Positions 6,959-29,010 of a stretch of DNA of 37,726 bases are shown here, one piece after another. The DNA is from Burkholderiaceae bacterium. GTDB lineage: Bacteria; Pseudomonadota; Gammaproteobacteria; Burkholderiales; Burkholderiaceae_C. The notes below the pieces were generated by a model. It ran no database searches and was not told the DNA's origin. It saw only the letters and a list, made by a program, of their open reading frames with translations. Where the stretch lies: contig DASURM010000171.1 in the NCBI GenBank assembly GCA_036280035.1, positions 1 to 37,726 on the forward strand, read 5' to 3'. The stretch's first letter is position 1. Each line of letters starts with the position of its first letter. The position numbers were made by a program, and so were the translations under genes.

Positions 6959-6970
6959 TCGCGCGGCGCG

Positions 6971-11931: not shown

Positions 11932-11958
11932 TCGGCGACCCTCGTCAGCGTCCTTTCG

Positions 11959-13881
11959 TCAGCTGCTCTTGCGCACGCGCAGATACCACTCGCACAGCAG
12001 GCGCACCTGCTTGCCGGTGTAGCCCTTGTCGATCATGCGGTTGACGAAGTCCTCGTGCTTCTTGGCCTCGTCGGCGCTGGCCTTGGCGTTGAAGCTGATC
12101 ACCGGCAGCAGTTCCTCCGTATTGGAGAACATCTTCTTCTCGATCACCGCGCGCAGCTTCTCGTAGCTCGTCCACACCGGGTTCTTGCCCTGGTTGTTGG
12201 CGCGCGCGCGCAGCACGAAGTTGACGATCTCGTTGCGGAAGTCCTTCGGATTGGCGATGCCGGCGGGCTTCTCGATCTTCTCCAACTCGGCGTTCAACGC
12301 GGCTCGGTCGAACACCTCGCCGGTGTCGGTGTCGCGGAACTCCTGGTCCTGGATCCAGTAATCGGCGTAGGTGACGTAGCGGTCGAAGATGTTCTGGCCG
12401 TACTCGCTGTAGCTCTCCAGGTAGGCGGTCTGGATCTCCTTGCCGATGAACTCGGCATAGCGCGGCGCCAGCTGCTCCTTGATGAAGCCGACGTACTTCT
12501 GCTCCATCTCCTGCGGAAACTGCTCGCGCTCGATCTGCTGCTCGAGCACGTACATCAGGTGCACCGGATTGGCCGCCACCTCCTGGCTGTCGAAGTTGAA
12601 GACCTTGGAGATGATCTTGTAGGCAAAGCGCGTCGAGATGCCGCTCATGCCTTCGTCGACACCGGCGTAGTCGCGGTACTCCTGGTAGCTCTTGGCGCGC
12701 GGGTCGGTGTCTTTCAGGTTCTCGCCGTCGTAGACCTGCATCTTGGAGAACAGCGACGAGTTCTCGGGCTCCTTCAACCGCGTCAGGATCGCGAACTGGC
12801 TCATCATCTTCAACGTGCCCGGGGCGCACTTGGCCTCGGCCAGCGACGAGTTGCGGATCAGCTTCTCGTAGATCTTGGTTTCTTCGGAGACGCGCAGGCA
12901 GTACGGCACCTTGACGATGTAGACGCGGTCGAGGAAGGCCTCGTTGTTCTTGTTGTTGCGGAAGCTCTTCCACTCGCTCTCGTTGCTATGCGCGAGGATG
13001 ATGCCGTCGAACGGGATGGCGCCGAAACCTTCGGTGCCCTTGAAGTTGCCCTCCTGCGTGGCCGTCAGCAGCGGGTGCAGCACCTTGATCGGCGCCTTGA
13101 ACATCTCGACGAACTCGAGCAGCCCCTGGTTGGCCAGGCACAGACCCCCGGCATAGCTGTAGGCGTCGGGGTCGTCCTGCGCGTAGGTCTCGAGCTTGCG
13201 GATGTCGACCTTCCCCACCAGCGAGGAGATGTCCTGGTTGTTCTCGTCGCCGGGCTCGGTCTTGCAGACGGCGATCTGCTTGAGCACCGACGGGTACCGC
13301 TTGACGACCCGAAACTTGCGGATGTCGCCGCCGTACTCCTCGAGCCGCTTGACCGCCCACGGCGACATCACCCGGTTGAGGTAGCGGCTCGGGATGCCGT
13401 ACTCCTTTTCCAGGATCGGGCCGTCCTCGGTGAAGTCGAACAGCCCGAGCGGCGACTCGTTCACCGGCGAGCCCTTGATCGCGTAGAAAGGCACGTGCTC
13501 CATCAACTGCTTCAGGCGTTCGGCGATCGAACTCTTGCCGCCACCGACCGGACCCAGCAGGTACAGCACCTGCTTCTTCTCCTCCAGGCCCTGCGCGGCG
13601 TGCCGGAAGTACGACACCACCTGCTCGATCGAGTCCTCCATGCCGTAGAACTCGGCGAAGGCGGGGTAGATCTTGATGACCTTGTTGGCGAAGATGCGCG
13701 AAAGGCGTGGGTCGTTGCGCGTGTCGACCATTTGCGGCTCGCCGATGGCCTTGAGCATGCGCTCGGCCGCAGTGGCATAGGCCAGCGGGTTGCGCTTGCA
13801 TTCAGCCAGGTATTCTTCGAGCGAGAGTTCCTCTTCTCGCGTGCGCTCGAAGCGGGCTGCAAAGTTGCTGATCACGTCCAT
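11959..13881 (-). CDS. PrkA-family serine protein kinase (YeaG-like)
   Basis: Walker A LLGPVGGGKSS and overall PrkA/YeaG architecture. The start at ATG 13879-13881 (MDVISNFAARF) is preceded by AAGGAGG. The 18-codon upstream extension lacks an SD. Confidence 0.9.
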   Translation of the reverse strand: MDVISNFAARFERTREEELSLEEYLAECKRNPLAYATAAERMLKAIGEPQMVDTRNDPRLSRIFANKVIKIYPAFAEFYGMEDSIEQVVSYFRHAAQGLEEKKQVLYLLGPVGGGKSSIAERLKQLMEHVPFYAIKGSPVNESPLGLFDFTEDGPILEKEYGIPSRYLNRVMSPWAVKRLEEYGGDIRKFRVVKRYPSVLKQIAVCKTEPGDENNQDISSLVGKVDIRKLETYAQDDPDAYSYAGGLCLANQGLLEFVEMFKAPIKVLHPLLTATQEGNFKGTEGFGAIPFDGIILAHSNESEWKSFRNNKNNEAFLDRVYIVKVPYCLRVSEETKIYEKLIRNSSLAEAKCAPGTLKMMSQFAILTRLKEPENSSLFSKMQVYDGENLKDTDPRAKSYQEYRDYAGVDEGMSGISTRFAYKIISKVFNFDSQEVAANPVHLMYVLEQQIEREQFPQEMEQKYVGFIKEQLAPRYAEFIGKEIQTAYLESYSEYGQNIFDRYVTYADYWIQDQEFRDTDTGEVFDRAALNAELEKIEKPAGIANPKDFRNEIVNFVLRARANNQGKNPVWTSYEKLRAVIEKKMFSNTEELLPVISFNAKASADEAKKHEDFVNRMIDKGYTGKQVRLLCEWYLRVRKSS

Positions 13882-14327
13882 GCGGACCTCCTTCATCGGA
13901 CGGATGCCCCGACACAACCTTGGTGCCGTCGACATCTGGGAAGTTCTGATGAAGTCCCGGCTGTACGGGCCCAGGCTCCATCAGAGCTTTCCGGTCTGCA
14001 ACGCTCGAGACCTCAGCCCCTCGCGTGTCTCAGCATAGCGATCCTGCTCGACCCGACGCCTCGAGTAAAGCCCGCACTTGTGCCCTGTTCGATTCGTACG
14101 TCATTCAGCGGTCATCGCGGCGTCGATCGGATGGTAGTGTCTTCAACGCAAGTGTGCGACCTACGGCTGACCCGACCGACTTCGTTGTGGGGCCCACTAT
14201 GCGCCGACTGCGCGGATGCTCAGAGGCGGGGCTCGTGGTCATCCTCTTGCAGAGGCATGAGCCGTGATGTAGCGCACGCGAGGTGTTGTAGCTGGCTCGA
14301 CAGGGCCCGGGGCAGAGGCCACCTCGT

Positions 14328-15221
14328 TCAGCCTTCGATCACTCCGAGCTTGTCGAGCAATCCCTCCAGTTCGTCCAACGACCCGAACGCAATGGCGATC
14401 TCGCCACGGCCACCTGCGCCACGACGCTTGAGGCGGATCTGCACCAGGGCGGTCAGACGATCGGCCAACTGCTCCTCGATCCGCAGGATGTCGCGCGACT
14501 TCTCGGCAGCTTGCGCCGACCTCCCGTTCGCGGCAGCGCGCCCATCGGATCGACGGGCGACCAGGCGCTCGGTTTCGCGCACCGAAAGGTGTTTGGCGAC
14601 GATTTCATTGGCGCACAGGATCTGCTCGGCCGCCGGCAAGGCCAGCAGCGCGCGCGCGTGACCCATTTCGAGGTCGCCAGCCATCAGCAGCTTCTGCACG
14701 GGCCCGGCCAGGTTGAGCAAGCGCATCAGGTTGCTGGCCGCGCTGCGCGAGCGCCCTACCGCCTGGGCGGCCTGGTCGTGGGTGAGCCGGAACTCGTCGA
14801 TCAGGCGCTGCAGGCCCTGTGCCTCTTCGAGCGGATTGAGATCCTCGCGCTGAATGTTCTCCACCAGCGACATCACGGCAGCGGCTTCGTCTGGCACATC
14901 GCGCACCAGCACCGGCACGTCGTCCAGGCCGGCAAGCCTCGCGGCACGCACGCGCCGCTCGCCGGCGATGATTTCGTAGCTACCCACGCCCAGCGGCCGC
15001 ACCAGCACCGGCTGCATCAGGCCCTGGCTCTTGATGCTCTGCGCCAGCTCCATGAGCGAGCCCTCGTCCATGCGCGTGCGCGGCTGATAGCGGCCCGGCT
15101 TGAGCTGGCTGAGCCGCAAGCTGCTCGGTTGCTGAGCCATCGCGGCCGGCGCCTCGGTCACCTTGGGACCCAACAGCGCCTCGAGCCCCATGCCCAGTCC
15201 CTTTGGTCTCTTGGTCACCAT
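14328..15221 (-). CDS. parB: Chromosome partitioning protein ParB
   Basis: Motifs KGLGMGLEALLG, the ParB box IIAGERRVRAARLAGL, and an HTH region. Confidence 0.9.
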   Translation of the reverse strand: MVTKRPKGLGMGLEALLGPKVTEAPAAMAQQPSSLRLSQLKPGRYQPRTRMDEGSLMELAQSIKSQGLMQPVLVRPLGVGSYEIIAGERRVRAARLAGLDDVPVLVRDVPDEAAAVMSLVENIQREDLNPLEEAQGLQRLIDEFRLTHDQAAQAVGRSRSAASNLMRLLNLAGPVQKLLMAGDLEMGHARALLALPAAEQILCANEIVAKHLSVRETERLVARRSDGRAAANGRSAQAAEKSRDILRIEEQLADRLTALVQIRLKRRGAGGRGEIAIAFGSLDELEGLLDKLGVIEG

Positions 15222-15316
15222 GGTGGGTCATTGTCGGCCATCGTGGACCGTGACGGCTCCAGGCAGCGGCGATTGACGATATCCTGTTGCACCGCAAACG
15301 CACCGCGGGTTCCAAG

Positions 15317-16264
15317 ATGAGCTACACCGTATACGTCGATGGCCAGGAAGGCACCACCGGTCTGCAGATCAACGAGTTGCTGGCACGCCGTCGCGACATC
15401 GAGGTACTGCGCATCGCCGGCGACCTGCGCAAGGACGACGCCGAGCGAGCCCGGCTGTTGAACGCGGCGGATGTGGTGTTCCTCTGCCTGCCCGATCAGG
15501 CCGCGCGCGAGGCAGCCAGTTGGGTGACCAACCCCCGCACGTGCGTCATCGACGCGAGCACGGCGCACCGCGTCGATCCGGGCTGGGTGTTCGGCCTGCC
15601 GGAGCTCGAGCGTGAGCAGCGCGATCGCTTGCGCCAACACAAGCGAATCAGCAATCCGGGCTGCCATGCCACCGCGTTCATCCTGCTGATTCGCCCGTTG
15701 GTCGATGCCGGGGTTATCGATGCCGACGCGGCGTTGTCTGCTACCTCGATCACTGGCTACTCGGGCGGCGGCCGCAAACTGATCGAGCAATACGAGACCA
15801 GGCCGCTGCCGCAACGCCTACAGTCACCGCGGCCCTATGGCTTGGCCCTCGGGCACAAGCATGTGCCGGAGATGACGCGTTGGGCCGGGTTGCAGACTCG
15901 CCCCGTGTTCATGCCCATCGTTGCCAATTTCTACAAGGGCTTGGCTGTAAGTGTGCCCTTGCATTTATCAGCATTGACCAGCGGCACCGATGCACGTCGC
16001 CTACACGATGCGCTGGGCGAACGCTATGCCGACGAGCGGTTCGTCAAGACGATGCCGCTTTCGGACGTGGCCGCGCTCGATGCCGGCTACTTCGATGTCC
16101 AGGCCTGCAATGACACCAACCGCTGCGAGGTCTTCGTGTTCGGCGGCGCCGACCAGGCGATTCTGATCGCGCGGTTGGACAACCTCGGCAAGGGGGCGAG
16201 CGGTGCCGCGGTGCAGTCGATGAACCTGCACCTGGGACTCGATGAGGGGTTGGGGCTCGTCTAG
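15317..16264 (+). CDS. argC: N-acetyl-gamma-glutamyl-phosphate reductase, short (type 2) form
   Basis: MSYTVYVDGQEGTTGL N-terminus and catalytic ISNPGCHATA. The start is taken at ATG 15317. Confidence 0.9.
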   Translation: MSYTVYVDGQEGTTGLQINELLARRRDIEVLRIAGDLRKDDAERARLLNAADVVFLCLPDQAAREAASWVTNPRTCVIDASTAHRVDPGWVFGLPELEREQRDRLRQHKRISNPGCHATAFILLIRPLVDAGVIDADAALSATSITGYSGGGRKLIEQYETRPLPQRLQSPRPYGLALGHKHVPEMTRWAGLQTRPVFMPIVANFYKGLAVSVPLHLSALTSGTDARRLHDALGERYADERFVKTMPLSDVAALDAGYFDVQACNDTNRCEVFVFGGADQAILIARLDNLGKGASGAAVQSMNLHLGLDEGLGLV

Positions 16265-17043
16265 TCGGTCAGTTCGGCCGCGGTTCGGTAGTGATACGAG
16301 TAGCCGTCGGCGAAACCCAGCCGCCAGTACACCGCCCGCGCCGGGTGGTTTGACGCATCGACCTGGAGATAGCCGATGCGGGCTCCGCGCTGCCGGGCGC
16401 GATCGAGCAACAGCGCGCAGAGCTTGCGCGCCCAGCCCTGGTTGCGGGATTGACTGGTCGTGAACACGTCGTACAGCCCGACCATGTCGGCCTCGGTGGC
16501 AGTCTGTCCGCACGCCAATGGCGTACTCTGACCATCGCGACGCAACGCCCAGCCTTCGAACGGCACCGGCGACAACTCGAGCCGCTGCGCGTGTGCTTGC
16601 TGCTGCGACAGCGGCGACCCTCGCAGTTGCCCCACCGTCTGTGCGAAGGCTGCATTTCCGAGGCGCTGCAGGCTCACCCCGGTCGGCAGCGGCTCGGCTG
16701 CAATCGTCCCCAGGTCGCCGTTGACCATGACGCGCGTATCGTCGAATGCCCGCAGCCCTTGCGACTCGAGCCATGCGTCGAGTTTCTGCGGCTGCGACAG
16801 GGGCGTCAGGCGCACGATGAGCGGCAGCTGCGCCTGATCGAAAACCTGCTGACACAACGCCAGCTTCTCCGGCAGCGCCAGGCGCCCTTGGGATACCGCG
16901 TTGACACAGCGCGCCCGCTTTGCCTTACCTGGCGAGAACCGCACCAGCCAGCCGTCGATCCAGCGCTGCTGCGGAGGCGCGCTGGCATTCAGGCCCGCGT
17001 CTTCCACGCGAGACAGGAGCGCCGTGGAAACGAGGGACCGCAT
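16261..17043 (-). CDS. GNAT-family N-acetyltransferase (two-domain type)
   Basis: C-terminal GNAT core VFTTSQSRNQGWARKLCALLLDRARQRGARIGYLQVDASNHPARAVYWRLGF. ATG 17041-17043 overlaps the parA stop (TGATG). The upstream 120 codons of the ORF are antisense noise. Confidence 0.7.
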   Translation of the reverse strand: MRSLVSTALLSRVEDAGLNASAPPQQRWIDGWLVRFSPGKAKRARCVNAVSQGRLALPEKLALCQQVFDQAQLPLIVRLTPLSQPQKLDAWLESQGLRAFDDTRVMVNGDLGTIAAEPLPTGVSLQRLGNAAFAQTVGQLRGSPLSQQQAHAQRLELSPVPFEGWALRRDGQSTPLACGQTATEADMVGLYDVFTTSQSRNQGWARKLCALLLDRARQRGARIGYLQVDASNHPARAVYWRLGFADGYSYHYRTAAELTD

Positions 17044-17852
17044 CAGGCGAGCTGCTCGACGCGCGCGACCATTTCGCGAGCGAACTCGAGGTAGGCCTGG
17101 GCGCCCTTCGACGCGGGGTCGAACACCACCCCCGGCTGGCCGTAGCTCGGCGCCTCGGCCAGGCGAACATTGCGCGGAATCACGGCGTCGAACACCTTGT
17201 CGCCGAAGTGGCCCTTCAACTGCTCGCTGACCTGCTGCTGCAGGGTGATGCGCGGGTCGAACATGACACGCAGCAGGCCGATGATCTGAAGTTCCGGGTT
17301 GAGGTTGGCATGCACTTGGCGGATCGTGTTCACCAGGTCGGTCAGCCCTTCGAGGGCGAAGTATTCGCATTGCATGGGCACGATCACGCCGTGCGCGCTG
17401 CACAGGCCGTTCAGCGTGAGCAGACTGAGGCTGGGTGGGCAGTCGACGACCACGATGTCGTATTCGCTGGCCACGGCCTCCAGTGCCCGGCGCAGGCGTT
17501 GGTCACGCCTTTCCAGCCCGACCAACTCGACTTCGGCTCCCGCCAACTCCCTGTTGGCGCCGAGAACGTCGTAACCGCCCACTTCGGAACGCTGGCGCGC
17601 CTCGGTGATCGTTGCCGTCTCGAGCAGAACATCGTAGACGGAGAGGCTCAGCGAGCGCTTGTCGACGCCCGACCCCATAGTGGCGTTGCCCTGAGGGTCC
17701 AAATCGACCAGCAGCACACGCTGCCCGACCTGGGCCAACCCGGCAGCCAGATTAACCGTCGTCGTGGTCTTGCCGACACCGCCCTTCTGATTCGCGATGC
17801 AAAAGACCCGGGACCGCTGCATCTGCGGCGGATCCGATAGATCTGCGGTCAT
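17043..17852 (-). CDS. parA: Chromosome partitioning ATPase ParA/Soj
   Basis: Deviant Walker A CIANQKGGVGKTTTTVNLA and DLDPQGNAT. The ATG overlaps the rsmG stop (ATGA). Confidence 0.9.
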   Translation of the reverse strand: MTADLSDPPQMQRSRVFCIANQKGGVGKTTTTVNLAAGLAQVGQRVLLVDLDPQGNATMGSGVDKRSLSLSVYDVLLETATITEARQRSEVGGYDVLGANRELAGAEVELVGLERRDQRLRRALEAVASEYDIVVVDCPPSLSLLTLNGLCSAHGVIVPMQCEYFALEGLTDLVNTIRQVHANLNPELQIIGLLRVMFDPRITLQQQVSEQLKGHFGDKVFDAVIPRNVRLAEAPSYGQPGVVFDPASKGAQAYLEFAREMVARVEQLA

Positions 17853-18523
17853 GGCGTTGTCCTACGCATCCAGATCAGGTTTCGTTCGGCATTCAACTCC
17901 GGAACCGTGACAGGTTCCACGTGAAACACCTCCACGCCCTTGTTCAATCGGGCGAACTCGTCTGACGGCGCTCGGCCCTTCATCGCGACCCACACCCCGT
18001 TCTGCACAAGGAGCCGCCCGGTCGACGCGATCAGCTTGTCGAGCGATGCGAACGCGCGCGACACCACCACATCGAATCCTTCGACCGGTTGCAGATGTTC
18101 GAGTCTGTCGTGGTGGGCGGTGAGGTTGGCGATTCCGGCCTCAGCAGCTGCCTGGCGGACGAAAGCCACCTTCTTTGCCACTGCATCGACGGCAGCGATC
18201 GCCCAGTCGGGTCGAAGCGCCGCGACCACGACGGCCGGAAACCCCGATCCCGATCCGGCATCGAGTACCCGCAACGATCTCCCCTTCGCGTGACGAGTCA
18301 AAGGCCCCACGAGAGTCATGCTGTCGAAGACATGTTGGACCATGTAATGCGAGAGGGTAGCTTGCGCACTCAGGTTATGAACTCGGTTCCAGCGGTCGAG
18401 ACAGGCTAGGTAGGCGAGCAACCGGAAGGCCTGCTCATCATCGATTGCGAGGCCCAACTGATGCGCACCGCTGACCAGTCGCTGCAAGAGCTCCGGCTCC
18501 GACCTCGAGCCTGCGCGAGGCAT
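17849..18523 (-). CDS. rsmG: 16S rRNA (guanine527-N7)-methyltransferase RsmG (GidB)
   Basis: SAM-binding motif VLDAGSGSGFPAVVVA, positioned downstream of mnmG. Confidence 0.9.
   Translation of the reverse strand: MPRAGSRSEPELLQRLVSGAHQLGLAIDDEQAFRLLAYLACLDRWNRVHNLSAQATLSHYMVQHVFDSMTLVGPLTRHAKGRSLRVLDAGSGSGFPAVVVAALRPDWAIAAVDAVAKKVAFVRQAAAEAGIANLTAHHDRLEHLQPVEGFDVVVSRAFASLDKLIASTGRLLVQNGVWVAMKGRAPSDEFARLNKGVEVFHVEPVTVPELNAERNLIWMRRTTP
17913..17928. other. parS centromere-like site
   Basis: GGTTCCACGTGAAACA matches the parS consensus TGTTNCACGTGAAACA at 15 of 16 positions. It lies inside the 3' end of rsmG. Confidence 0.8.
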
Positions 18524-18529
18524 TCTTCT

Positions 18530-20500
<1,971 letters not shown>

Positions 20501-20578
20501 CGGTGCCCACTCTTCGCAAGGCCCCGCATTGTAGGAAAGCGCACTGGGCGAGAGTGCCCCCGCGGGCGCGGAAGCGAC

Positions 20579-22738
20579 TCAATGGGCTTTCTGCGACGCA
20601 ACGACTCCGCCCACCGAACGCAGCTCATGCGAGACGTTGCCATCGGCGAGCACCACCACCCGATCGGCGCTGGCGATCGTTTCAGGACGGTGGGCGACGA
20701 TCACGCGCGTCAGCTTCAATTGGCGGACGGCCTGATTGACGAGACGCTCACGCTCGACATCGAGCGCGCTCGTCGCCTCATCGAGAAACAAAACGCGCGG
20801 CCGCTTGTAGAGCGCGCGGGCCAGCAGCACGCGCTGCTTCTGGCCTCCCGAGAGCGTGGATCCCATCTCGCCGATCAGCGTGTAGTACCCCATCGGCAAG
20901 GCTGCAATCTCCTCGTGCACTGCCGCCATGCGGGCGCAATCGACCACCCGCTCCATGTCGGGTCGCGGGTCGAAGAAGCTGATGTTGTCGGCAACCGCAC
21001 CTGCAAACAGGGGCTCGTCCTGCATCACTGTGCCGACCATCGCTCGCCATGTCGCCGAGCCCATCGTCTCGAGAGGTCGTCCGCCGATCAACACCTCGCC
21101 CTGCACGGGAGACAGGATGCCCAGCATCAGCTTGATCAGCGTGGTCTTGCCGCAACCCGACGGACCCACGATGGCGATCGATTCGCCCGGCTCGATGCAC
21201 AGGCTCACGTTGCGCAGCACGTCGCCCTCGCTGTCGGAGTAGCGAAAGCCCACGCCCCGCAGCTCGATGCGCGGTGCGGCGGCGTCGCGGTCACCCGACC
21301 GCGACTCGAGGGCCTCGGCGTGCGCTCTCTCCGGCTCGCTGAGCACGATGTCGGCCAGGCGCTCGCCCTGCACCTTGAGCATGCCGAGCTCGGCCCACTT
21401 GTCGATCAGCGCGCCGACGCGTTGCGAGAACTGCTCCTTGTAGGCAACGAACGCGAGCAACATGCCGACCGTCAGGTTCTGGTCCAGCACGAGCGATGCA
21501 CCGATCCAGATCACGAGCACGCGCTCCAATCCGAACAGGCCCCGGTTGGCAACCGCCAGCGTCACCTCGAGGCGGCGCACGACCATGTCGGCATTCATCG
21601 CATCGACCACCAGGTTCATGAAGCGCGAGCGCCGATCGGCCTCGGCCGCGAACAACTTGATCGCCATCACGCCGCGCAACGACTCGAGGAAATGGCTGGT
21701 CTTCTTCGCATCGTGCACCAGCGCTTCCTCCGTCGCGCGGCGCATCGGCGCGAACAGCGCCCAACGCAGCACTGCGTAGACGACGACGAACGCCAGCACC
21801 ACGGCGCTCAACAGCAGGCTGTACAGCGCCATCATCACCAGCGTCGTCACCACCAACGCGCCGTCGAGCAGCACCTCGAGGAAGCTGGTCGTCAGCGTCT
21901 TCTGGATCTGCTGCACGGCGAAGAAGCGCGACCAGATGTCGCCCATGTGTCGCCGCTCGAACCACGCCAGCGGCAGACGCAACAGGTGAGCGAACACGTT
22001 GCCCAGCCACTGCAGGTTGAGGGTGGCCGACAGGTGCAACACCGCCCACGAGCGGATTGCCGCCGCAGCCACCTGGATCGCCACCAGCAGCGCGAACCCG
22101 ATGCCCAGCGTCACCAGCAAGTCGCGATCGGCAGTGACCAGGACGTCGTCGACCACCCACTGCAGGTAGAACGGGCTCAGCAGCACGAAGAACTCGAGCA
22201 CCAGCGCCAGCGCAACGATCTGCCCCAGCGAGCGCCTGAGCCCGACCACCCGCCCCAAGAGCTGGCGCATCGTGATGCGCCGCTGCTCGTCGCGGCGCTC
22301 GAACCCCGCGTCGGGGGTGAGTTCCATCGCCGCGCCCGTGAAATGCCGCGAAAGCCGGGCCCACTTCACCCAGTGCGCGCCACGGGCAGGGTCGTGGATC
22401 AACACCGCGTCGCGGCGCACCTTGACCAGCACGACGAAGTGGTTGAAGTCCCAATGCAGGATCGCAGGCAGCGGCAACTGCTCGAGCTGCTCGGGCTCGG
22501 CACGCACCGCTCTCGTCTGCAGCTTCAACGCGCGCGCCATGGTGGCCAGGTCGGCCATCGTGGCACCCTTGAGCGACAGGTTGAAGCGCTGGCGCAACGC
22601 CGGCAGGTCGACGTGCAGGCCGTGCGAGGCCGCGACCATCGCCAGGCAGGCCAGCCCGCACTCGGCCGCCTCGTTCTGCAGGATCACCGGCGTCCCGGGG
22701 GCGCCGAAGCCGATGCGCAGCGATCGGGCGACGGTCAT
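20579..22738 (-). CDS. Peptidase-containing ABC transporter (PCAT): N-terminal C39 peptidase, TMD and NBD
   Basis: C39 triad candidates are Cys in QNEAAECGLACLAMV, His in WDFNHFVVL and Asp in LIHDPA. Walker A GPSGCGKTTL, signature LSGGQKQRVLLARAL and Walker B LFLDEATSALD are present. The architecture is CvaB/ComA/RaxB-like. Confidence 0.9.
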   Translation of the reverse strand: MTVARSLRIGFGAPGTPVILQNEAAECGLACLAMVAASHGLHVDLPALRQRFNLSLKGATMADLATMARALKLQTRAVRAEPEQLEQLPLPAILHWDFNHFVVLVKVRRDAVLIHDPARGAHWVKWARLSRHFTGAAMELTPDAGFERRDEQRRITMRQLLGRVVGLRRSLGQIVALALVLEFFVLLSPFYLQWVVDDVLVTADRDLLVTLGIGFALLVAIQVAAAAIRSWAVLHLSATLNLQWLGNVFAHLLRLPLAWFERRHMGDIWSRFFAVQQIQKTLTTSFLEVLLDGALVVTTLVMMALYSLLLSAVVLAFVVVYAVLRWALFAPMRRATEEALVHDAKKTSHFLESLRGVMAIKLFAAEADRRSRFMNLVVDAMNADMVVRRLEVTLAVANRGLFGLERVLVIWIGASLVLDQNLTVGMLLAFVAYKEQFSQRVGALIDKWAELGMLKVQGERLADIVLSEPERAHAEALESRSGDRDAAAPRIELRGVGFRYSDSEGDVLRNVSLCIEPGESIAIVGPSGCGKTTLIKLMLGILSPVQGEVLIGGRPLETMGSATWRAMVGTVMQDEPLFAGAVADNISFFDPRPDMERVVDCARMAAVHEEIAALPMGYYTLIGEMGSTLSGGQKQRVLLARALYKRPRVLFLDEATSALDVERERLVNQAVRQLKLTRVIVAHRPETIASADRVVVLADGNVSHELRSVGGVVASQKAH

Positions 22739-22748
22739 GCTCGCGGCC

Positions 22749-23999
22749 TCAGAGACGGCCGGCCACGCCCAGCACCGGTGCGAACAGCCACTCGACGAGG
22801 CGGCGCCGTTCGAGCATCACGTCGGCGTCGAGCTGCATGCCGGCTGCCAGCGGCTGCTCGCGGCCGTACGCCATCACCGATTGCCGCGCCAAGCTCACCG
22901 TCACCCGATACATCGGCTCGTCGGGTTTGACCGCCAGCGGCAACGCGGCCAGCTCGCCGGCTTGCAGCGGCGTGCTCGACACCCGAATCACCGAGCCGAC
23001 CTGGTGGCCGAACTTCTGGTACGGGAATGCGGCCACCCGCATCCGCACCGCCTGCTGCGGGCGGATGAAGCCGAGCGCGCTCGACGGGGCATACAGATGG
23101 GCCTGCAGCCGCGTGTCGGACGGCACCAGGCTGGCGAGCGCGACGTCCGGCGACACGGTTTGCCCGGGCTCGGCCAGCACCGCAGCCAACGTGCCATCCT
23201 GCGGCGCACGAACCAGCAGTTCATGCCTGGCTTCGTTCTCGGCCGACTCCTGGGCCAGCGCCTGCGCCGCGCGTTGCAGCTCGCCGGCGCGTGCCTGCTC
23301 CTGCAGCGGCAACTCGCGGCGCTGGCCTTCGAGCGCGGCGATCTCGCGCTGCAGCGTGTTGCGCTGGCGCTCCAGCGCGACGAGTTGCGCCCGCAGCGCC
23401 AGCACCTCCTCGCCCTTGGTGTTGACCTGGGCGCCCGACACGAAGCGCTCGTCGCGCAGCGACTCCAGCCGCGTCAGCGTCTGCTGTGCCAGCGCAAGTC
23501 GCTGGCGCTGCAGCTCGGTCTCGGTGCCGATCTGCGTCACCTCCTGGCGCAGCCCGGCCAGGCGCTGCGTCAGGGCGGCCTCCTGCTCGCGGCTCAGTCG
23601 CCGGCGCGCCTGCAGAGTCTCGTTCAGGCTCTCCTGGCGCGCGCGCAGGCTGCTTTGCACGCGTTGCTGCGCCGTGCCGTCACCCAGGTGCTGGTCGAGC
23701 GTCAGCACGAACAACACATCGCCGGCATGAACGGCTTGGCCTTGCTGGACGCGCCGCTCGGCCACGGTGGCCAGTTGCGGGGCTACCAGGCGGATCCAGC
23801 CGCGATCGGGCACCAGCACGCCGTGCACATGCGCCTTGCGGGTGTATTCACCCAACGCCAGCCAGGCGCCGACCGCCACCGCGGCGCCGACCAGCACGAT
23901 CACCAGCACCGACAGCGACACCGGGCGCACGAGGCGCACCTCGCCCATCCATTGCTGGCGCTGCGCCTCGAGGGCCTCGTGCCGGAACAACGGCTTCAT
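22749..23999 (-). CDS. HlyD-family secretion adaptor (CvaA/ComB/RaxA-like)
   Basis: N-terminus MKPLFRHEALEAQRQQWMGEV, one TM helix, a long coiled-coil (QRLAGLRQEV...LERQRNTLQREIAALEGQ) and a C-terminal beta-barrel region. It ends 10 nt upstream of the PCAT gene. Confidence 0.85.
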   Translation of the reverse strand: MKPLFRHEALEAQRQQWMGEVRLVRPVSLSVLVIVLVGAAVAVGAWLALGEYTRKAHVHGVLVPDRGWIRLVAPQLATVAERRVQQGQAVHAGDVLFVLTLDQHLGDGTAQQRVQSSLRARQESLNETLQARRRLSREQEAALTQRLAGLRQEVTQIGTETELQRQRLALAQQTLTRLESLRDERFVSGAQVNTKGEEVLALRAQLVALERQRNTLQREIAALEGQRRELPLQEQARAGELQRAAQALAQESAENEARHELLVRAPQDGTLAAVLAEPGQTVSPDVALASLVPSDTRLQAHLYAPSSALGFIRPQQAVRMRVAAFPYQKFGHQVGSVIRVSSTPLQAGELAALPLAVKPDEPMYRVTVSLARQSVMAYGREQPLAAGMQLDADVMLERRRLVEWLFAPVLGVAGRL

Positions 24000-24026
24000 G
24001 GCAAACGCGGCCCCACAAACGCAGAA

Positions 24027-24047
24027 CGGCCCGGTTGTACCGGGCCG
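24027..24047 (-). terminator. Hairpin between the peptide gene and the exporter genes (possible partial terminator)
   Basis: CGGCCCGG-ttgta-CCGGGCCG is a perfect 8-bp stem. On the minus strand it is followed by TTCTGCGTTTGT, which is only moderately U-rich. Confidence 0.35.
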
Positions 24048-24101
24048 CCGACTTGCCGGCCGGAGGGGGGAAGCGCCGGCGCGTCGAGAGAACTCGGGTT
24101 G

Positions 24102-24254
24102 CTACCAGCCGCCGCGCGGCAGGCCCTGGCCGCCGGCGACTTGCGCCAGTTGGCGGGGCTCAAGCGGCTGCAGGGTTTTCTTCGGCTCGATCGCGACGTC
24201 GCGCTTGCCGGCAAACAAGGTCTTGAGCAACGAGGTCTTGCGGGTTTGCTGCAT
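24102..24254 (-). CDS. Double-glycine-leader peptide precursor, 50 aa, predicted 8-aa core QGLPRGGW
   Basis: Sequence MQQTRKTSLLKTLFAGKRDVAIEPKKTLQPLEPRQLAQVAGG/QGLPRGGW. GGAGA lies 5 nt upstream of the ATG and third-position GC is high. The leader has GG at -2/-1, V at -4 and L at -7, -12 and -15. The gene sits directly upstream of HlyD and a C39-ABC gene. Confidence 0.6.
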   Translation of the reverse strand: MQQTRKTSLLKTLFAGKRDVAIEPKKTLQPLEPRQLAQVAGGQGLPRGGW

Positions 24255-24330
24255 GGTGGTCTCCGTTCGGGGTGTCGCGCCTGGCCCATGGCGCATGACG
24301 GAGATTGCAGCAGCGGATGCTCGACCATGA

Positions 24331-24350
24331 AACTGTCAACTCTTACAGGG
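24331..24350. promoter_or_regulatory. lux-box-like inverted repeat upstream of the peptide gene
   Basis: AACTGTCAACTCTTACAGGG has the form CTGT-N8-ACAG and matches the V. fischeri lux box ACCTGTAGGATCGTACAGGT at 14 of 20 positions. A TGCAAT -10-like hexamer (minus strand, 24304-24309) lies about 34 bp from the box centre, which would put the box near -43. Confidence 0.5.
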
Positions 24351-24392
24351 TGACAGCGGCGGCGAATGCGGGCCAAATGTTACGGGCTTGCG

Positions 24393-25103
24393 TCAGCGAA
24401 TCAGGCCCAGCCGCAGAGCCTTGAGTACCGCCTGATGCTTGTTGACGCTGCCGAGCTTGCGCATCGCGTTGTTCAGGTGCAGCACGGCGGTGCGCTCGGT
24501 GATGCCGAGGATCGACCCGACCTCCCAGGCCGTCTTGCCTTCCATCGTCCAGCGCAGCGCCTCCAGCTCGCGCGGCGTCAGCGACGGCCCGTCCTGGCCC
24601 GCGGCCGGCAGCAGCACCCGCAGCGCCGCGTCGAGCGCGTGCACCGCGAACAGCTGCAGGTCGGCCACCACCCGGGTCAGCTCGTGGCGGTCGCTCGGCA
24701 GCGCACGATCACGGTCGACGCCGAGCATGAAGTGTTTGCCCTCGGGCAGATGCAGCGCCATCGCGATGCCGGTCTGATAGCCGTAGCGCGCCTGCTCCTC
24801 CCACAGCTCGCCCTGCCCCTGCGAGGTGTAGGTGCCCTGATCCCAGATGATCGGCAGGCTCTGCCGCTTGCAATGCTGCATCACCGGATCGCGTTGCATG
24901 GCACGCGCGTCGTTGAAGGCACCGCGCCACTCCTGCGGGGTGTTGTCGACGACGACGAACTCGCTGCGCCCGATGCCATGGTCGATCACCGTCACCGCGG
25001 AGACCGTATCGAAGCCCAACGCGCGGCCGAAGCGGACAACCTCCTCGCGGAACTCCTCACGGTTCCTCGCCTGCAGCACCGATGAATAACCGCCTTGCAG
25101 CAT
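24393..25103 (-). CDS. LuxR-family regulator with an N-terminal autoinducer-binding domain (LuxR solo in this window)
   Basis: C-terminal GerE/LuxR HTH LTPRELEALRWTMEGKTAWEVGSILGITERTAVLHLNNAMRKLG. The N-terminal domain shows the TraR-type spacing W-x12-DP-x13-W (EWRGAFNDARAMQRDPVMQHCKRQSLPIIW). Confidence 0.9.
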   Translation of the reverse strand: MLQGGYSSVLQARNREEFREEVVRFGRALGFDTVSAVTVIDHGIGRSEFVVVDNTPQEWRGAFNDARAMQRDPVMQHCKRQSLPIIWDQGTYTSQGQGELWEEQARYGYQTGIAMALHLPEGKHFMLGVDRDRALPSDRHELTRVVADLQLFAVHALDAALRVLLPAAGQDGPSLTPRELEALRWTMEGKTAWEVGSILGITERTAVLHLNNAMRKLGSVNKHQAVLKALRLGLIR

Positions 25104-25140
25104 GTGATCGAGTGCGCACTAGGGCGCTGGGCGCGCGCCG

Positions 25141-25160
25141 ACCTGAAAGGTCTTACAGAT
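25141..25160. promoter_or_regulatory. Second lux-box-like inverted repeat in the luxR / ORF-25218 divergent region
   Basis: ACCTGAAAGGTCTTACAGAT has the form CTG-N10-CAG and matches the lux box at 15 of 20 positions. It shares the 8-mer TCTTACAG and 13 of 20 positions with the box at 24331-24350. Confidence 0.5.
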
Positions 25161-25217
25161 TTCAAACGATTGCCGGTTGCCGAACACTAGTCGACACGGC
25201 AAACAACGAGTCGCATC

Positions 25218-25616
25218 ATGCAAACCAAGACCCACGCCTGTCCCCCCTGGACCCTTCGTGCCTGGCCGCCTCTATTGTGGCAGTTTGACAAGCTGCAGCC
25301 GCTCAGGTTGCGGCACTTGGGCACGCGCGTCACGAACCCCGGCGACCAAGTCTCGCGCACCTCCGGCCAGACCATCTGGGCGGCGGCAGCCGCCGACGGC
25401 CAGGCCGGCATGGCCTGGGACTGGATCCAGTTGTCGGCCGGCGTGGTGGCGATGGCCGACCCGCTGTCGGTGGTCACCAATCTGCACCTGGTCAGCGCCG
25501 ACGGCGACGCACTGAGTCCGCTGGAGTCGCTGCGTCACCTCAATGAAGTCGTGCACACGCTGCGCTGGCAGAACGAAGTCGAGCGCGTGCTCGCGGTCAA
25601 TGCGCAGGCGGCGTAG
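25218..25616 (+). CDS. Hypothetical Trp-rich protein (132 aa), family not recognised
   Basis: Third-position GC stays high across the ORF, most strongly from about 25330. It has 8 Trp in 132 residues and no obvious signal peptide or TM helix. It is divergent from the luxR homologue. The start is uncertain. Confidence 0.5.
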   Translation: MQTKTHACPPWTLRAWPPLLWQFDKLQPLRLRHLGTRVTNPGDQVSRTSGQTIWAAAAADGQAGMAWDWIQLSAGVVAMADPLSVVTNLHLVSADGDALSPLESLRHLNEVVHTLRWQNEVERVLAVNAQAA

Positions 25617-25622
25617 CTGAAC

Positions 25623-26786
25623 TCAACGCGTCGCCGCCAGCCGCAGCCGGCGCGCGACGATGCCCAGACAGAGCGTCGTCCCTGCGACGGCCACCGCCAG
25701 CGGCACCAGCAGATCGGGTGTCGCGAAAGCGTCGCCGCGCAACGCGCGGCCCATCAACGTCACTTGCGCCAGCGCCGGCAGCCACAGGTGCCACGGCCGC
25801 TCGCCGCCGCCGTCGAACAGCGTCACCAGCGGCAGCACCGACACCAGCAGGATCACCACGGTGTTGCTCGCCTGGGCCTCCTTGAAGGTCTTGCAACCGA
25901 TGGCGATGGCCATCATCAGCGCCGACAGCATCGCCGCCAGCGGCAGCAGCAACGCCAGGAACAGGCCGGCCTCGCGCAGGCCGAATCGGAACAGCGCCGC
26001 CAGCGTGTCGCTGCGCATCAGGCTCTGCGCCGGCATGAAGCTGAGGCAACTCAACACGGCGATCAGCATGCCCACGCTGGCTACCGCGGCCCACTTGCCG
26101 ATGACCAGCGCCAGCGGCGACGCCGGGGTCGTCAGCAACGGCTCGAGCGAGCCGCGCTCGCGCTCGCCGGCGGTGGTATCGAGCGCCGCATTGAGTGCGC
26201 CGTACAGCACGGCCATCAGCACGAAGAACGGCAAGATGCCCGTCAGCTGCGCCGCACGAGCGCGCGGGTTCGCGAGATCGCGCTCCTCGATCTGCGCCGG
26301 CTGCAGCAGCGCCGGTGCAACGCCGCGATACACGAGCCGCTGCAACGCCAGCTCCTGGTTGAAGGCCAGCAGCGCGCGCTGCACCCGTCGCACGGAGGCG
26401 GCGGCGCGCGAGTTGGCGCTCGACGTCACCACCTCCAGCAGCGGACGATCACCGCGCGCCAGCGCGGCCTCGAAGTCCGGCGGCACCACCACCACCGGGT
26501 CGGCGAGCCGCCGCTCCACCAGCTGGCGCTCGTAGTCGGCCGGCGCCGGCTTGATCCGCAGGGTCTGACGTTCGAGGAAGTTGCGCAGGCTGGGTGCATG
26601 CTCGATGCCTGCGGCCACGATGTCGCGCGATTCGGCGCGTTCCTCGCTGTTCGCCACCAGCACCGACAGCCCGAACAACAGCACGGGCCCCATCAGCACC
26701 GACGACAGCACCACCGCCAGCAGCGTGCGTCGATCGCGCAACGCGTCGCGCAGCTCCTTGACGAACACGGTCCAGGCGTCGCTCAC
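25623..26786 (-). CDS. ABC-2 type transporter permease (NatB-like)
   Basis: N-terminal TM helix, a large extracytoplasmic loop, the hallmark TAGERERGSLEPLL, and a C-terminal bundle of five TM helices. GTG 26784-26786 overlaps the ATPase stop (GTGA). Confidence 0.85.
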   Translation of the reverse strand: MSDAWTVFVKELRDALRDRRTLLAVVLSSVLMGPVLLFGLSVLVANSEERAESRDIVAAGIEHAPSLRNFLERQTLRIKPAPADYERQLVERRLADPVVVVPPDFEAALARGDRPLLEVVTSSANSRAAASVRRVQRALLAFNQELALQRLVYRGVAPALLQPAQIEERDLANPRARAAQLTGILPFFVLMAVLYGALNAALDTTAGERERGSLEPLLTTPASPLALVIGKWAAVASVGMLIAVLSCLSFMPAQSLMRSDTLAALFRFGLREAGLFLALLLPLAAMLSALMMAIAIGCKTFKEAQASNTVVILLVSVLPLVTLFDGGGERPWHLWLPALAQVTLMGRALRGDAFATPDLLVPLAVAVAGTTLCLGIVARRLRLAATR

Positions 26787-27547
26787 TCGCCAGCCCTGGC
26801 TTCGTCGGCAAAGGCCAGGCTGACGAAGGCCTGCTCGAAGTCGTCGTGCCCGCTCGCCCGGCACAGCTCGCCGACGCTGCCCTCGGCCACCGCGCGCCCG
26901 TGCGCCATCACCACCACGTGATCGCACAGGCGCTGCACCTCCTGCATGATGTGCGTGCAGAACACGATGCACTTGCCGTGCTCGTCGCGCAGCCGGCGCA
27001 GGGCCTGGCGCAACCCGCGGATCGACTGCACGTCGAGCCCGTTGGTCGGCTCGTCGAGCACGATGTTCGGCGGGTCGTGCACGAGCGCGCGCGCCAGCGC
27101 GGTTTTCATGCGCTCGCCCTGGCTGAAGCCGACCGTGCGCCGGTCGAGCAGCGGCTCGAAGTCGAGCGTGCGCGCCAGCGCCAGCGCCCGCGCATCGGCA
27201 GCGTCGCGGGCGATGCCGTGCAGGTGCGCGTGGTAGACGATGTTCTCGCGCGCCGTCAGCCGCGGATACAGGCCGCGCGCATCGGACAGCACGCCCAGCC
27301 GCGCCAGCGCGTCGCGCGGCCGAGCGACCACGTCGATGCCATCGACCTCGATGCGGCCTTCGTCGGGCGGCAGCAACGCCGCCACCATGCGCAGCAGGGT
27401 CGTCTTGCCGGCACCGTTGGGGCCGAGCACCGCGGTGATGCGGCCATCGGCGGCCGAGAGCGTCACGCCCCGCACCGCGTCGACCACACGCCTGGCGCGC
27501 CCACGTCCCTGCACGAAGCGCTTGTGCAGTCGGTCCACCCGGATCAT
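26783..27547 (-). CDS. ABC transporter ATP-binding protein (NatA-like)
   Basis: Walker A GPNGAGKTTLL, signature FSQGERMKTALARAL and Walker B IVLDEPTNGLD. ATG 27545-27547 overlaps the upstream stop (ATGA). Confidence 0.9.
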   Translation of the reverse strand: MIRVDRLHKRFVQGRGRARRVVDAVRGVTLSAADGRITAVLGPNGAGKTTLLRMVAALLPPDEGRIEVDGIDVVARPRDALARLGVLSDARGLYPRLTARENIVYHAHLHGIARDAADARALALARTLDFEPLLDRRTVGFSQGERMKTALARALVHDPPNIVLDEPTNGLDVQSIRGLRQALRRLRDEHGKCIVFCTHIMQEVQRLCDHVVVMAHGRAVAEGSVGELCRASGHDDFEQAFVSLAFADEARAGE

Positions 27548-29010
27548 CGGGCCGACCCCGCGGCCTGGCCGAGCGGAACGAACAGACGAGGCCGCGGCAG
27601 CGCCTGAGCGCAGCTTGCGTCGACCTTCAGCGCAGCGTCGTCGTCGCGCGCCTCGATGAACCGTACCACCGCATCGCGCAGGCACGGCAATGCCATCACG
27701 CCATGGCCGGCGTTGGGCACCTCCGTGTGCCGAGCCTTCGGCCCCAGCGCGCGCGCGATCCGCTCACCGTGGCGCGGCGGCGTCGCCGGGTCCGCTGCGC
27801 CCGACAGCACCCAGGTCACCGCCGGCGCGGGTGGCGTGGTGTAGAAGCTCGCGGCCACGGCACCGCGCGGCCACGAGGCGCACGCCTGCTCGTACAGCCG
27901 TGCGAATGCGTCGCCGAACTGGGCGCCGGGGGCGCCGGGGGCCTGACCCAATCGCGGCACGTCTTCGGCGCACACCACCGAAAAGTGCATGCCGGTGTAC
28001 AGCGCCGCGCCCGGCCCCCTCATCGCCGAGGCCAGCCCCGTCAGCGCATCGAACCGGCCCGCCGCGGCATCGCCGATCGCCGCCGGCAGCACCGCCGCGA
28101 GCGCCGGCACGTACAGCGCCGAACGCACCATGCCCAGCACCTCGTCGCGCGTCAGTCGCACCGACTCGAGTCGGCCCGTCAGCGGGTCGGTCAACTCCAC
28201 CTGGCGCGGCAGCGCGTCGAGCACGCCTAGCCACAGCGCTCGCAGGCGCGGATGGCGGGCTCGACAGTCGACGTCGGCTGCACACCAGTCGAACAGGGCA
28301 TCGAGAGCGGCCTGGTTGTCGATCGAGAACGATGCCGGCAACACCATGTCGGCCGGCGCCACGCCGTCGAGCACGACCCGCCGCACCGCGCGCGGAAACA
28401 GTCGCATGTACTCCAGCGCTGCGCGCGTGCCGTACGACGCCCCCACGAGGTTGATGGTGGGCGCACCGAGTGCAGCGCGCACCGCCTCGACATCGGCCAT
28501 CGCGATCGACGTGGTGTAGCGGCGCAGGTCGCCGTAGGGCAGCTTCGTCAACTGCTCGCGGCACGAGGCCAGTTGCGCCAGCTGCCGCTGCGGGTCGAGC
28601 TGCCCGACCAGCGGGCGCAGCGCCTGGCGATCGCTCTCGCAGCGCAGCGGCGCGCTGCGGCCGGTACCCCGCTGATCGACGAACACCAGGTCGCGCCGAT
28701 TGTTCAGCCGCCCCAGCTGCGCGGCCACGGGGCCGGCGAGTTCGATCGCGCTCTGGCCCGGTCCGCCGGCGAAGAAGAACACCGCGTCCGCCAGCTTGTG
28801 CTGCGCCAGCGCAGGCAGCAGCGCGAAGTGCACGTCGATCTTCGTGCCGTCGGGCTGCGCCGGGTCGAGCACACGCCGCACGCTGCCGCACAGTGCGTCG
28901 TGGGTCACCCCCTCGAGCCGACACGGCGTCAGAGGGGCCGCCTGCGCGGCGGCCGCGAACGCCAGCCCGGTTAAGCCGACGGTCCAGCGCAAGCTCCACC
29001 GGGTCGTCAT
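27544..29010 (-). CDS. Secreted alpha/beta hydrolase (TAP-like / tripeptidyl-aminopeptidase-type)
   Basis: Signal peptide MTTRWSLRWTVGLTGLAFAAAAQA, then FFFAGGPGQSAIE, VDQRGTGRS, nucleophile elbow GASYG and C-terminal PNAGHGV. The upstream 295 codons of the ORF are a run-on. Confidence 0.85.
   Translation of the reverse strand: MTTRWSLRWTVGLTGLAFAAAAQAAPLTPCRLEGVTHDALCGSVRRVLDPAQPDGTKIDVHFALLPALAQHKLADAVFFFAGGPGQSAIELAGPVAAQLGRLNNRRDLVFVDQRGTGRSAPLRCESDRQALRPLVGQLDPQRQLAQLASCREQLTKLPYGDLRRYTTSIAMADVEAVRAALGAPTINLVGASYGTRAALEYMRLFPRAVRRVVLDGVAPADMVLPASFSIDNQAALDALFDWCAADVDCRARHPRLRALWLGVLDALPRQVELTDPLTGRLESVRLTRDEVLGMVRSALYVPALAAVLPAAIGDAAAGRFDALTGLASAMRGPGAALYTGMHFSVVCAEDVPRLGQAPGAPGAQFGDAFARLYEQACASWPRGAVAASFYTTPPAPAVTWVLSGAADPATPPRHGERIARALGPKARHTEVPNAGHGVMALPCLRDAVVRFIEARDDDAALKVDASCAQALPRPRLFVPLGQAAGSAR

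Follow-up and report, generated by a model that had tools for sequence, protein, structure and literature searches.

LuxR-type quorum sensing is textbook small-molecule signaling by AHLs (N-acyl-homoserine lactones); signaling by ribosomal peptides is considered a Gram-positive trait. The locus described here lies in a stretch of 37,726 nucleotides (positions 1 to 37,726 of contig DASURM010000171.1, assembly GCA_036280035.1, from a Burkholderiaceae bacterium), referred to below as the window. It consists of a luxR gene with a 20-bp operator-like box on either side (boxes 1 and 2), a divergent rsaM-like gene and, downstream of luxR, a small peptide gene followed by genes for an exporter.

The closest described counterparts are CepI/CepR with RsaM (BCAM1869) in Burkholderia cenocepacia, TofI/TofM/TofR, and PfsI/RsaM/PfsR, where a LuxR activator gene stands beside a DUF4902/RsaM-type gene. 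The cep box of cepI is footprinted by CepR, 4-bp substitutions within it abolish cepI transcription, a second cep box lies upstream of cepR, and, judging from the oligonucleotide sequences, a TGTAAT hexamer follows the cepI cep box after about 22 nt (PMC1766932). The window has the same layout, in that the gene in the "signal" position has a promoter with a TG(T/C)AAT hexamer and, about 21 to 22 nt upstream of it, one box, and a second box lies near the regulator gene. Unlike in the CepI/CepR system, there is no luxI nearby, the gene behind the box encodes a double-glycine-leader peptide accompanied by an HlyD adaptor and a peptidase-containing ABC exporter (PCAT), the equivalents of LasR Y56, W60, Y64, and S129 are substituted and variable, and the RsaM-like protein is only a borderline match to DUF4902. 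A 2023 review lists a type 6 topology, a divergent rsaM-luxR solo pair with no adjacent luxI, for Pelomonas, Kinneretia, and further Burkholderiales (PMC10710839). The cassette fits this arrangement and comes from the same taxonomic neighborhood; the passages of the review on type 6 treat the LuxR protein as a solo of unknown ligand and make no mention of a peptide gene, an exporter, or boxes (PMC10710839).

Other systems share parts of the locus. As with the Vibrio fischeri lux box and class II activation by LuxR, the boxes are 20-bp imperfect inverted repeats with a CTG-N10-CAG skeleton, predicted to be centered in the low -40s and to overlap the -35 region; unlike there, 13 to 15 of 20 positions match the V. 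fischeri box and the promoter would rely on an extended -10 element. PluR/PauR of Photorhabdus and PipR/OryR of plant-associated bacteria likewise have a substituted AHL pocket, no cognate LuxI, and an adjacent ligand or target gene, but their ligands are pyrones, dialkylresorcinols, and an ethanolamine derivative, and none is associated with a ribosomal peptide and a PCAT. The Gram-positive systems ComAB/CSP, Rgg/SHP, ComR/XIP, and PlcR/PapR resemble the locus in having a small precursor gene beside the receptor gene, PCAT export of double-glycine peptides, an active C-terminal end, leaderless mini-precursors, pherotype-like covariation of receptor and peptide, and autoinduction (here proposed), but the receptor in the window is of the LuxR family rather than a tetratricopeptide repeat (TPR) protein of the RRNPP family or a histidine kinase, and the host is Gram-negative. 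Finally, class II microcins and RaxX/RaxABC of Xanthomonas are Gram-negative double-glycine peptides exported by a PCAT with HlyD; here, in contrast, the core has about 6 to 8 residues, there is no immunity gene or modification enzyme, and a LuxR/RsaM pair would exert control. We found no paper on the peptide motifs or on a LuxR-plus-PCAT peptide cassette, and we therefore regard the cassette as new; the LuxR-peptide module is widespread and apparently undescribed.

Two conserved boxes flank the luxR gene

Relatives of the regulator were sought by alignment of LuxR homologues in species-representative genomes, and 357 genomes held one. The best 80 loci from these genomes, with LuxR identities of 68 to 94%, served as the conservation set and together with the window make up the 81 loci referred to below; their host genera are Rubrivivax, Ideonella, Methylibium, Roseateles/Paucibacter, Piscinibacter, Rhizobacter, and Aquabacterium, in addition to Burkholderiaceae metagenome-assembled genomes (MAGs). 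Contigs of more distant LuxR relatives were mostly too short to include neighboring genes. The window luxR gene occupies 24393 to 25103 on the minus strand (Pfam Autoind_bind, 1.1e-26; GerE, 1.6e-14). Box 1 (AACTGTCAACTCTTACAGGG; 24331 to 24350, minus strand) follows its stop codon, and box 2 (ACCTGAAAGGTCTTACAGAT; 25141 to 25160) is situated in the 114-bp region between luxR and the divergent rsaM-like open reading frame (ORF 25218). The first-pass annotation, made from the letters of the window, had placed both boxes at exactly these coordinates, and it had correctly measured how far they lie from the stop and start of luxR (24393 and 25103), the peptide ATG (24254), and ORF 25218. On the gene strand, box 1 reads CCCTGTAAGAGTTGACAGTT; read toward luxR, box 2 is ATCTGTAAGACCTTTCAGGT.

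Both boxes are imperfect inverted repeats of 20 bp with the CTG-N10-CAG skeleton, as had been noted, and the 8-mer common to them (TCTTACAG) occurs twice in the window versus 0.10 times expected. The skeleton alone is uninformative (9 matches in the window versus 15.7 expected) and was therefore dropped as evidence in favor of a weight matrix trained on the 80 related loci of other species, with the window excluded. This matrix gave exactly two matches of at least 12 bits in the 37.7-kb window, namely, box 1 (32.8 bits) and box 2 (30.1 bits), and in 919 kb of related loci every match of at least 14 bits fell within the two intergenic regions.

Conservation of the two sites is universal in the set. 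Box 1 is present in 81/81 loci, 6 to 105 nt after the luxR stop, and three loci that at first seemed to be exceptions were accounted for by variants with a CAC arm or by a coordinate slip. Box 2 is likewise present in all loci, with a CAT arm instead of CAG in a clade that lacks the exporter. Both are kept while LuxR identity falls to 68%; across the family, box 1 has the consensus cCCTGTAAGAgcTGACAGTn and box 2 has AgCTGTAAanCcTgtCAGGg. Even in L085 and L086, where LuxR identity is 46%, there remain an rsaM-like gene, a degenerate box, a TGaTGGAAT element, a hairpin, and a PxGGW peptide (MTSSTSSSFPVGGWSALISLIFGG). Because of this universal conservation and the specificity of the weight matrix, we conclude that the boxes are real, specific, and under selection. 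The helix-turn-helix domain of the regulator is near invariant (mean column entropy of 0.36 versus 0.96 for the ligand domain), in keeping with the invariant core of the box.

The boxes had been called lux-box-like. The count of 15/20 matches to the V. fischeri lux box holds for box 2, and box 1 has 13/20 rather than the 14 that had been reported. Box 1 is identical to the cepI cep box of B. cenocepacia (CCCTGTAAGAGTTACCAGTT) at 18/20 positions, so that the reading as LuxR-type operators is supported and can be narrowed to the Burkholderia cep-box type. We therefore regard the boxes as putative cep/lux-type operators of the adjacent LuxR-family regulator and as new candidate members of that kind.

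Box 1 lies at a fixed distance from a conserved promoter element

In a gapless alignment of 78 loci anchored on box 1, a TGnT(g/t/c)(c/a)AAT block lies 21 nt past the end of the box. In the window, this extended -10 element (TGcTGCAAT, 24304 to 24312, minus strand) is TGCTGCAAT, and it contains the TGCAAT hexamer (24304 to 24309, minus strand) that the first-pass annotation had correctly placed 34 bp from the center of box 1. Transcription is predicted to start near 24297, 7 nt after the hexamer, which would put the center of box 1 at about -43.5. The class II geometry proposed earlier is thus supported, since the fixed 21-nt register to the extended -10 element is conserved across loci and does not depend on a single hexamer. 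Past the -10 element, a variable stretch is followed by GGAG, which is kept 6 to 10 nt before the start codon in the in-register alignment (window 24261 to 24264, minus strand, a predicted Shine-Dalgarno sequence), and the start codon itself comes 82 to 105 nt (mostly 90 to 99 nt) after the CTG of box 1.

RNA runs of the organism itself did not turn up, and relatives were therefore used as the source of RNA evidence; among DNA runs, one soil metagenome contained 96% of the sampled words of the window and the others 34% or less. A 240-nt contig of depth 84 (depths here are an assembler statistic) maps to locus L011, where its first nucleotide is L011:6831, some 5 nt past the predicted start. 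It spans the 5' untranslated region and the peptide ORF, and ends before hlyD. The peptide transcript was present in two further sludge metatranscriptomes at depths of 28 and 153, compared with depths of 2 to 12 for luxR contigs in these three sludge metatranscriptomes. These data fit a strong, discrete peptide transcription unit that starts at the predicted promoter position.

Near the 5' end of the predicted peptide mRNA, a hairpin with a stem of at least 5 bp was found in 88% of 74 distinct loci versus 41% of shuffled sequences, with stems that vary by locus (GCGCC/GGCGC, GTGCA/TGCAC, or TGCATCGCG/CGCGATGCA). The window hairpin (GCGCC-N8-GGCGC, 24277 to 24294, minus strand) is not significant when folded alone (z = 0.10). 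This 5' hairpin could be an mRNA stabilizer or a second operator.

Box 2 lies at a fixed distance from a -10-like element facing the rsaM-like gene

When the loci were anchored on box 2 and aligned toward ORF 25218, an A-A-n-n-n-T hexamer appeared at a fixed distance. In the window this -10-like element is AACACT (25183 to 25188, plus strand), which would place box 2 at about -44.5 of the rsaM-like gene. The distance from box 2 to the rsaM-like side is near constant, whereas the luxR ATG is 48 to 100 nt away, depending on the locus (in the window, box 2 lies 37 bp upstream of the luxR start codon). Since the spacing is fixed on the former side and variable on the latter, box 2 probably serves primarily the promoter of ORF 25218, for which it is better placed than for luxR. 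The target had been given as luxR and/or ORF 25218; the fixed spacing favors the second, with an effect on luxR only possible.

Overlapping tandem copies of box 2, spaced 16 to 18 bp apart overall, occur in the luxR/rsaM-like intergenic regions of several loci, with two boxes 18 bp apart in L024, L036, L043, L048, L050, L055, L062, and L064 and three copies 16 bp apart in L068 and L071. They may be separate sites for the two divergent promoters.

The divergent Trp-rich ORF pointed out in the first-pass annotation (25218 to 25616, plus strand; 132 amino acids) can now be described as encoding an RsaM-like protein, a putative distant DUF4902 member with a borderline match (PF16245; E = 2.6e-5, 24.5 bits versus a cutoff of 25). 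A DUF4902 match at E < 0.01 was obtained for 12/18 of its orthologues, and the sole Protein Data Bank match of the family profile was 4o2h, B. cenocepacia RsaM (BCAM1869), at E = 0.042. The gene is divergent from luxR in 79/80 related loci; in L074 the upstream sequence is too short to tell. Two relatives of 388 to 398 amino acids (P0122 and P0132) were considered as RsaM-LuxR fusions and rejected, as neither Pfam nor hhalign gave a DUF4902/RsaM-like signal.

Box 1 precedes a double-glycine-leader peptide gene

A small ORF occupies the corresponding place in each locus, and box 1 with a downstream peptide gene was found in 81/81 loci. The order rsaM-like and luxR (divergent), small ORF, hlyD, PCAT gene holds for about 62/80 related loci, and the remainder are without hlyD and the PCAT gene. 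In the window, the peptide gene (24102 to 24254, minus strand; 50 amino acids) encodes a precursor, MQQTRK...PLEPRQLAQVAGG|QGLPRGGW, with a double-glycine leader and an 8-residue core ending in Trp (full translation, MQQTRKTSLLKTLFAGKRDVAIEPKKTLQPLEPRQLAQVAGG|QGLPRGGW). The leader has the pattern L-12, L-7, V/I-4, G-2, and G-1 (LEPRQLAQVAGG|Q), as do those of the other PCAT-containing loci, and the core motif is [L/A/S/G]-P-x-x-x-W at the C terminus or with 1 to 4 residues after it. The peptide family had no match in Pfam or NCBIfam, and precursors beyond the close relatives were too divergent for tblastn; one close relative has the peptide gene annotated as a 54-amino-acid gene.

The exporter genes follow on the same strand. 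An HlyD-family periplasmic adaptor is encoded at 22749 to 23999 (minus strand; Pfam HlyD_3, 1e-14; NCBIfam type_I_hlyD, 4.6e-33, under the cutoff) and the PCAT at 20579 to 22738 (minus strand; Pfam Peptidase_C39, 1.5e-36; ABC_membrane, 2.8e-37; ABC_tran, 1.9e-32). The PCAT translation has the catalytic Cys, His, and Asp motifs ECGLAC, NHFVVL, and HDP, and the window thus encodes both a C39 peptidase-ABC transporter with its catalytic residues and an HlyD adaptor. Between the peptide gene and hlyD there is a GC-rich hairpin of 11 bp (24025 to 24049, minus strand), which is terminator- or attenuator-like and has no canonical U tract; the fold of the 109-nt post-peptide region that contains it was not significant (z = -0.99).

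The exporter-less clade (no hlyD and no PCAT gene) comprises L014, L017, L019, L022, L026, L035, L046, L052, L058, L065 to L067, and L070. Its peptides are leaderless, 10 to 22 residues long, and end in LP[RK]xGW (mostly LLPRNGW or QLPRAGW), and the two loci checked (L014 and L067) have canonical terminators after the peptide gene.

In other loci, one double-glycine leader is followed by two to four copies of the core motif (L015, L016, L020, L028, L030, L031, L037, L038, L045, L047 to L049, L054, L060, L061, L072, L073, L077, and L079), for example, GPNGGW four times in L073 and LPKGTW three times. Such repetition implies either further processing after the Trp or release of a multicopy signal. 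The peptide ORF of the L012 MAG (about 6867 to 7125) extends over 86 codons with an atypical tail after VAGGTLPE, probably as a result of a frameshift or an assembly error, and this locus was left out of the covariation tests described below.

The regulator has no neighboring luxI and a substituted ligand pocket

The best solved relatives of the regulator are LasR, RhlR, and QscR. No luxI gene (Autoind_synth) was found among the window ORFs scanned (the scan did not cover 17862 to 20578), within 10 kb on either side in a close relative on a 2.39-Mb contig, or, as a LuxI-like gene, among the ORFs listed downstream of luxR in 11 PCAT-less loci; in the other loci, the position downstream of luxR is taken by the peptide gene. 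By LasR numbering, D73, P74, W88, and Y93 are invariant in the 81 orthologues and the conserved Gly is kept. The Y56 equivalent is T or A in 75/81 (otherwise C, M, P, or S), that of W60 is Y (50), F (23), or W (8), that of Y64 is F, Y, I, M, S, A, or L, and that of S129 is variable. Because the equivalents of Y56, W60, Y64, and S129 are substituted or variable, the protein departs from the canonical AHL-receptor signature (TraR W57, Y61, D70, P71, W85, and G113; LasR Y56 and S129). Its predicted LuxR-type autoinducer-binding fold also places it outside the TPR-type RRNPP receptors. The cassette contains no conserved regulator other than LuxR.

Pocket-aligned residues change together with the peptide core

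Covariation was scored as parsimony changes on a neighbor-joining LuxR tree, which was built from the same alignment and was used with branch lengths ignored. Gly at core position P+3 goes with a large LuxR residue 69 (such as M, F, or Y) and other residues with G, A, S, or N in 78/80 loci, and 7/10 changes fall on the same branches (hypergeometric p of about 3e-8, for a size-class pairing that had been spotted before it was tested). Gly at P-1 goes with F126 in 8/8 loci, with 5/5 changes co-located, and Ser at P-1 goes with Q126. Asn at P+2 goes with I or L at residue 63 (5/5 changes co-located), and K100, a residue that evolved separately in about four clades, accompanies a nonbasic P+1. When all LuxR columns were scanned against four peptide positions (668 tests), column 126 versus P-1 ranked first (p = 6e-7), followed by columns 62, 63, and 59. 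The same scan with the RsaM-like protein as a control gave nothing below 2e-3. Plain mutual information between LuxR columns and the peptide was dominated by generally variable columns and was given up in favor of the branch co-location tests.

LuxR residues 63, 69, 100, and 126 align to LasR Y64, A70, F101, and S129, and we take F101 to be a pocket residue. Y64, A70, and S129 are among the residues with which LasR binds its AHL (PMC11378241). As a class, the LasR-pocket positions vary no more than other positions of the ligand domain (1.02 versus 0.93 bits), and we therefore make no claim of pocket-wide diversification.

Proposed circuit and alternative explanations

The sites and their conservation, the promoter geometry, the synteny, and the abundance of peptide mRNA in relatives are observations; LuxR binding to either box, the positions of the start sites, the regulatory direction, and feedback of the peptide on the regulator are inferences. 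It is highly probable that both boxes are LuxR operators of a circuit comprising the peptide/exporter genes and the rsaM-like gene and following the logic of CepI/RsaM/CepR, with the peptide in place of the synthase. LuxR would bind box 1, overlapping the -35 region (about -43.5) of the extended -10 promoter, and this promoter would transcribe the stand-alone double-glycine-leader peptide gene; read-through of the hairpin would extend transcription to the genes of the HlyD/PCAT exporter, by which the leader would be removed and the core secreted, either as QGLPRGGW or in a shorter form that ends in Trp. Box 2 would act as a class II-like activator site (about -44.5) of the rsaM-like gene and could also autoregulate luxR. 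The regulator would thus turn on both the signal gene, in a positive loop, and an RsaM-type modulator, in a negative loop. The first-pass annotation had suggested a small local regulon of the peptide/exporter operon plus luxR and/or ORF 25218, and the footprinted boxes, the fixed spacings, and the peptide mRNA contigs all speak for it.

Several points weigh against this circuit. A generic scan of the region for sigma-70 promoters and terminators turned up nothing of use at either box, with no sigma-70 consensus there, and the -10-like element of the rsaM-like gene is a weak match to the consensus. The RNA data are assembled contigs of relatives in sludge metatranscriptomes, with depth as given by the assembler, and one low-depth contig from a window-like organism links luxR to the peptide gene across box 1, so that some read-through or carry-over of DNA does exist. 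An effect of box 2 on luxR itself is possible, the geometry giving no deduction on it, and a paralogous LuxR encoded elsewhere could be the protein that binds the boxes.

The scales stand level on a more far-reaching proposal, in which LuxR would be the cytoplasmic receptor for the C-terminal P-x-x-x-W of the peptide, so that the locus would perform autoinducing peptide quorum sensing on a LuxR/RsaM scaffold. The same proposal takes the pairing of residues 63, 69, 100, and 126 with P+2, P+3, P+1, and P-1, respectively, as pherotype-like diversification and would count the leader- and exporter-less clade as part of the peptide-receptor system. The peptide is more likely the regulator's own signal than a mere output: its gene stands behind a cepI-like promoter in the place of luxI and is kept where the exporter has been lost, and a more telling clue is that receptor and peptide covary. 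The evidence points to a peptide-based variant of LuxR quorum sensing in several hundred Burkholderiales species of soil and water.

A less probable, though serious, alternative leaves the boxes as real operators and makes the peptide a mere output, microcin-like or otherwise secreted, while LuxR senses exogenous AHLs or another small molecule. We know of no LuxR-family protein that binds a peptide, and a literature search returned no report of one; the equivalents of the AHL-pocket residues D73, W88, and Y93 are retained, no peptide importer is encoded locally, and class II microcins are exported by just such a combination of double-glycine leader, HlyD, and PCAT. Against this, those microcins are peptides of tens of residues with a linked immunity gene, whereas the mature core here has only about 6 to 8 residues (8 in the window) and no extra small membrane-protein gene that might confer immunity was found among the window ORFs or in the one close relative inspected. 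Moreover, the clade without exporter and leader keeps box 1 and its 10- to 22-residue peptide ending in LP[RK]xGW, the pocket-aligned LuxR residues change on the same branches as the peptide core with nothing comparable for the RsaM-like control, and the AHL-contacting Y56 and W60 equivalents are T/A and Y/F/W.

It is improbable that the boxes are bound by another regulator, such as a LuxR paralogue or an unrelated dimer, and that the adjacency of luxR is incidental. Many Burkholderiales do have several LuxR paralogues, and a related contig has at least seven in tandem; both boxes nevertheless flank this particular luxR in 81/81 loci irrespective of what surrounds them, the motif belongs to the type that the homologous CepR recognizes, and no other conserved regulator is available in the cassette. 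Least credible of all is that the boxes are chance matches or an RNA element, for instance, box 1 as a terminator stem of luxR, which is effectively refuted by conservation: box 1 is indeed an inverted repeat 43 nt after the luxR stop and CTG-N10-CAG is not enriched in the window, but the weight-matrix specificity and the 81/81 conservation exclude chance, the arms pair over only 4 to 5 bp without a U tract, and the AAGAG at the center of the repeat is conserved as sequence, without compensatory changes.

Several hundred species of the genera Rubrivivax, Roseateles, Methylibium, Ideonella, Piscinibacter, and Rhizobacter, common inhabitants of soil, freshwater, and activated sludge, keep the cassette. 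Should the peptide prove to be the ligand, LuxR receptors would have a wider chemical range, many LuxR solos with no known ligand would be explained, and naturally covarying receptor/peptide pairs would be at hand for specificity studies or engineering. Confirmed peptide binding would amount to a categorically new pairing of signal and receptor. If the peptide is only an output, the boxes still define a compact regulon and a portable promoter/regulator pair, and they give a firm handle on the role of RsaM-like proteins beside solos.

Neighboring genes and minor observations

The 10.1-kb ENA contig L081 carries a relative at 52 to 59% identity in a head-to-tail array of at least seven LuxR paralogues, with no other type of gene between them save one unannotated 70-amino-acid ORF on the opposite strand. 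Adjoining the rsaM-like gene of the window is a pair of genes for an ABC-2 permease and ATPase (25623 to 27685, minus strand), which is syntenic in most loci and may be involved in peptide traffic or may merely be a conserved neighborhood.

On the other side, the cassette adjoins parB, parA, gidB (rsmG), and gidA (mnmG), both in the window (14328 to 20578) and in L087; of these, gidB and gidA (17862 to 20578) were identified by synteny with L087 alone, being outside the Pfam scan. The four genes form the usual origin-proximal neighborhood, and the hlyD/PCAT pair lies as an insertion between gidA and the peptide gene. Further away, at 10642 to 13980 (minus strand), a PrkA serine kinase gene stands beside a DUF444 gene, a pair unrelated to the boxes.

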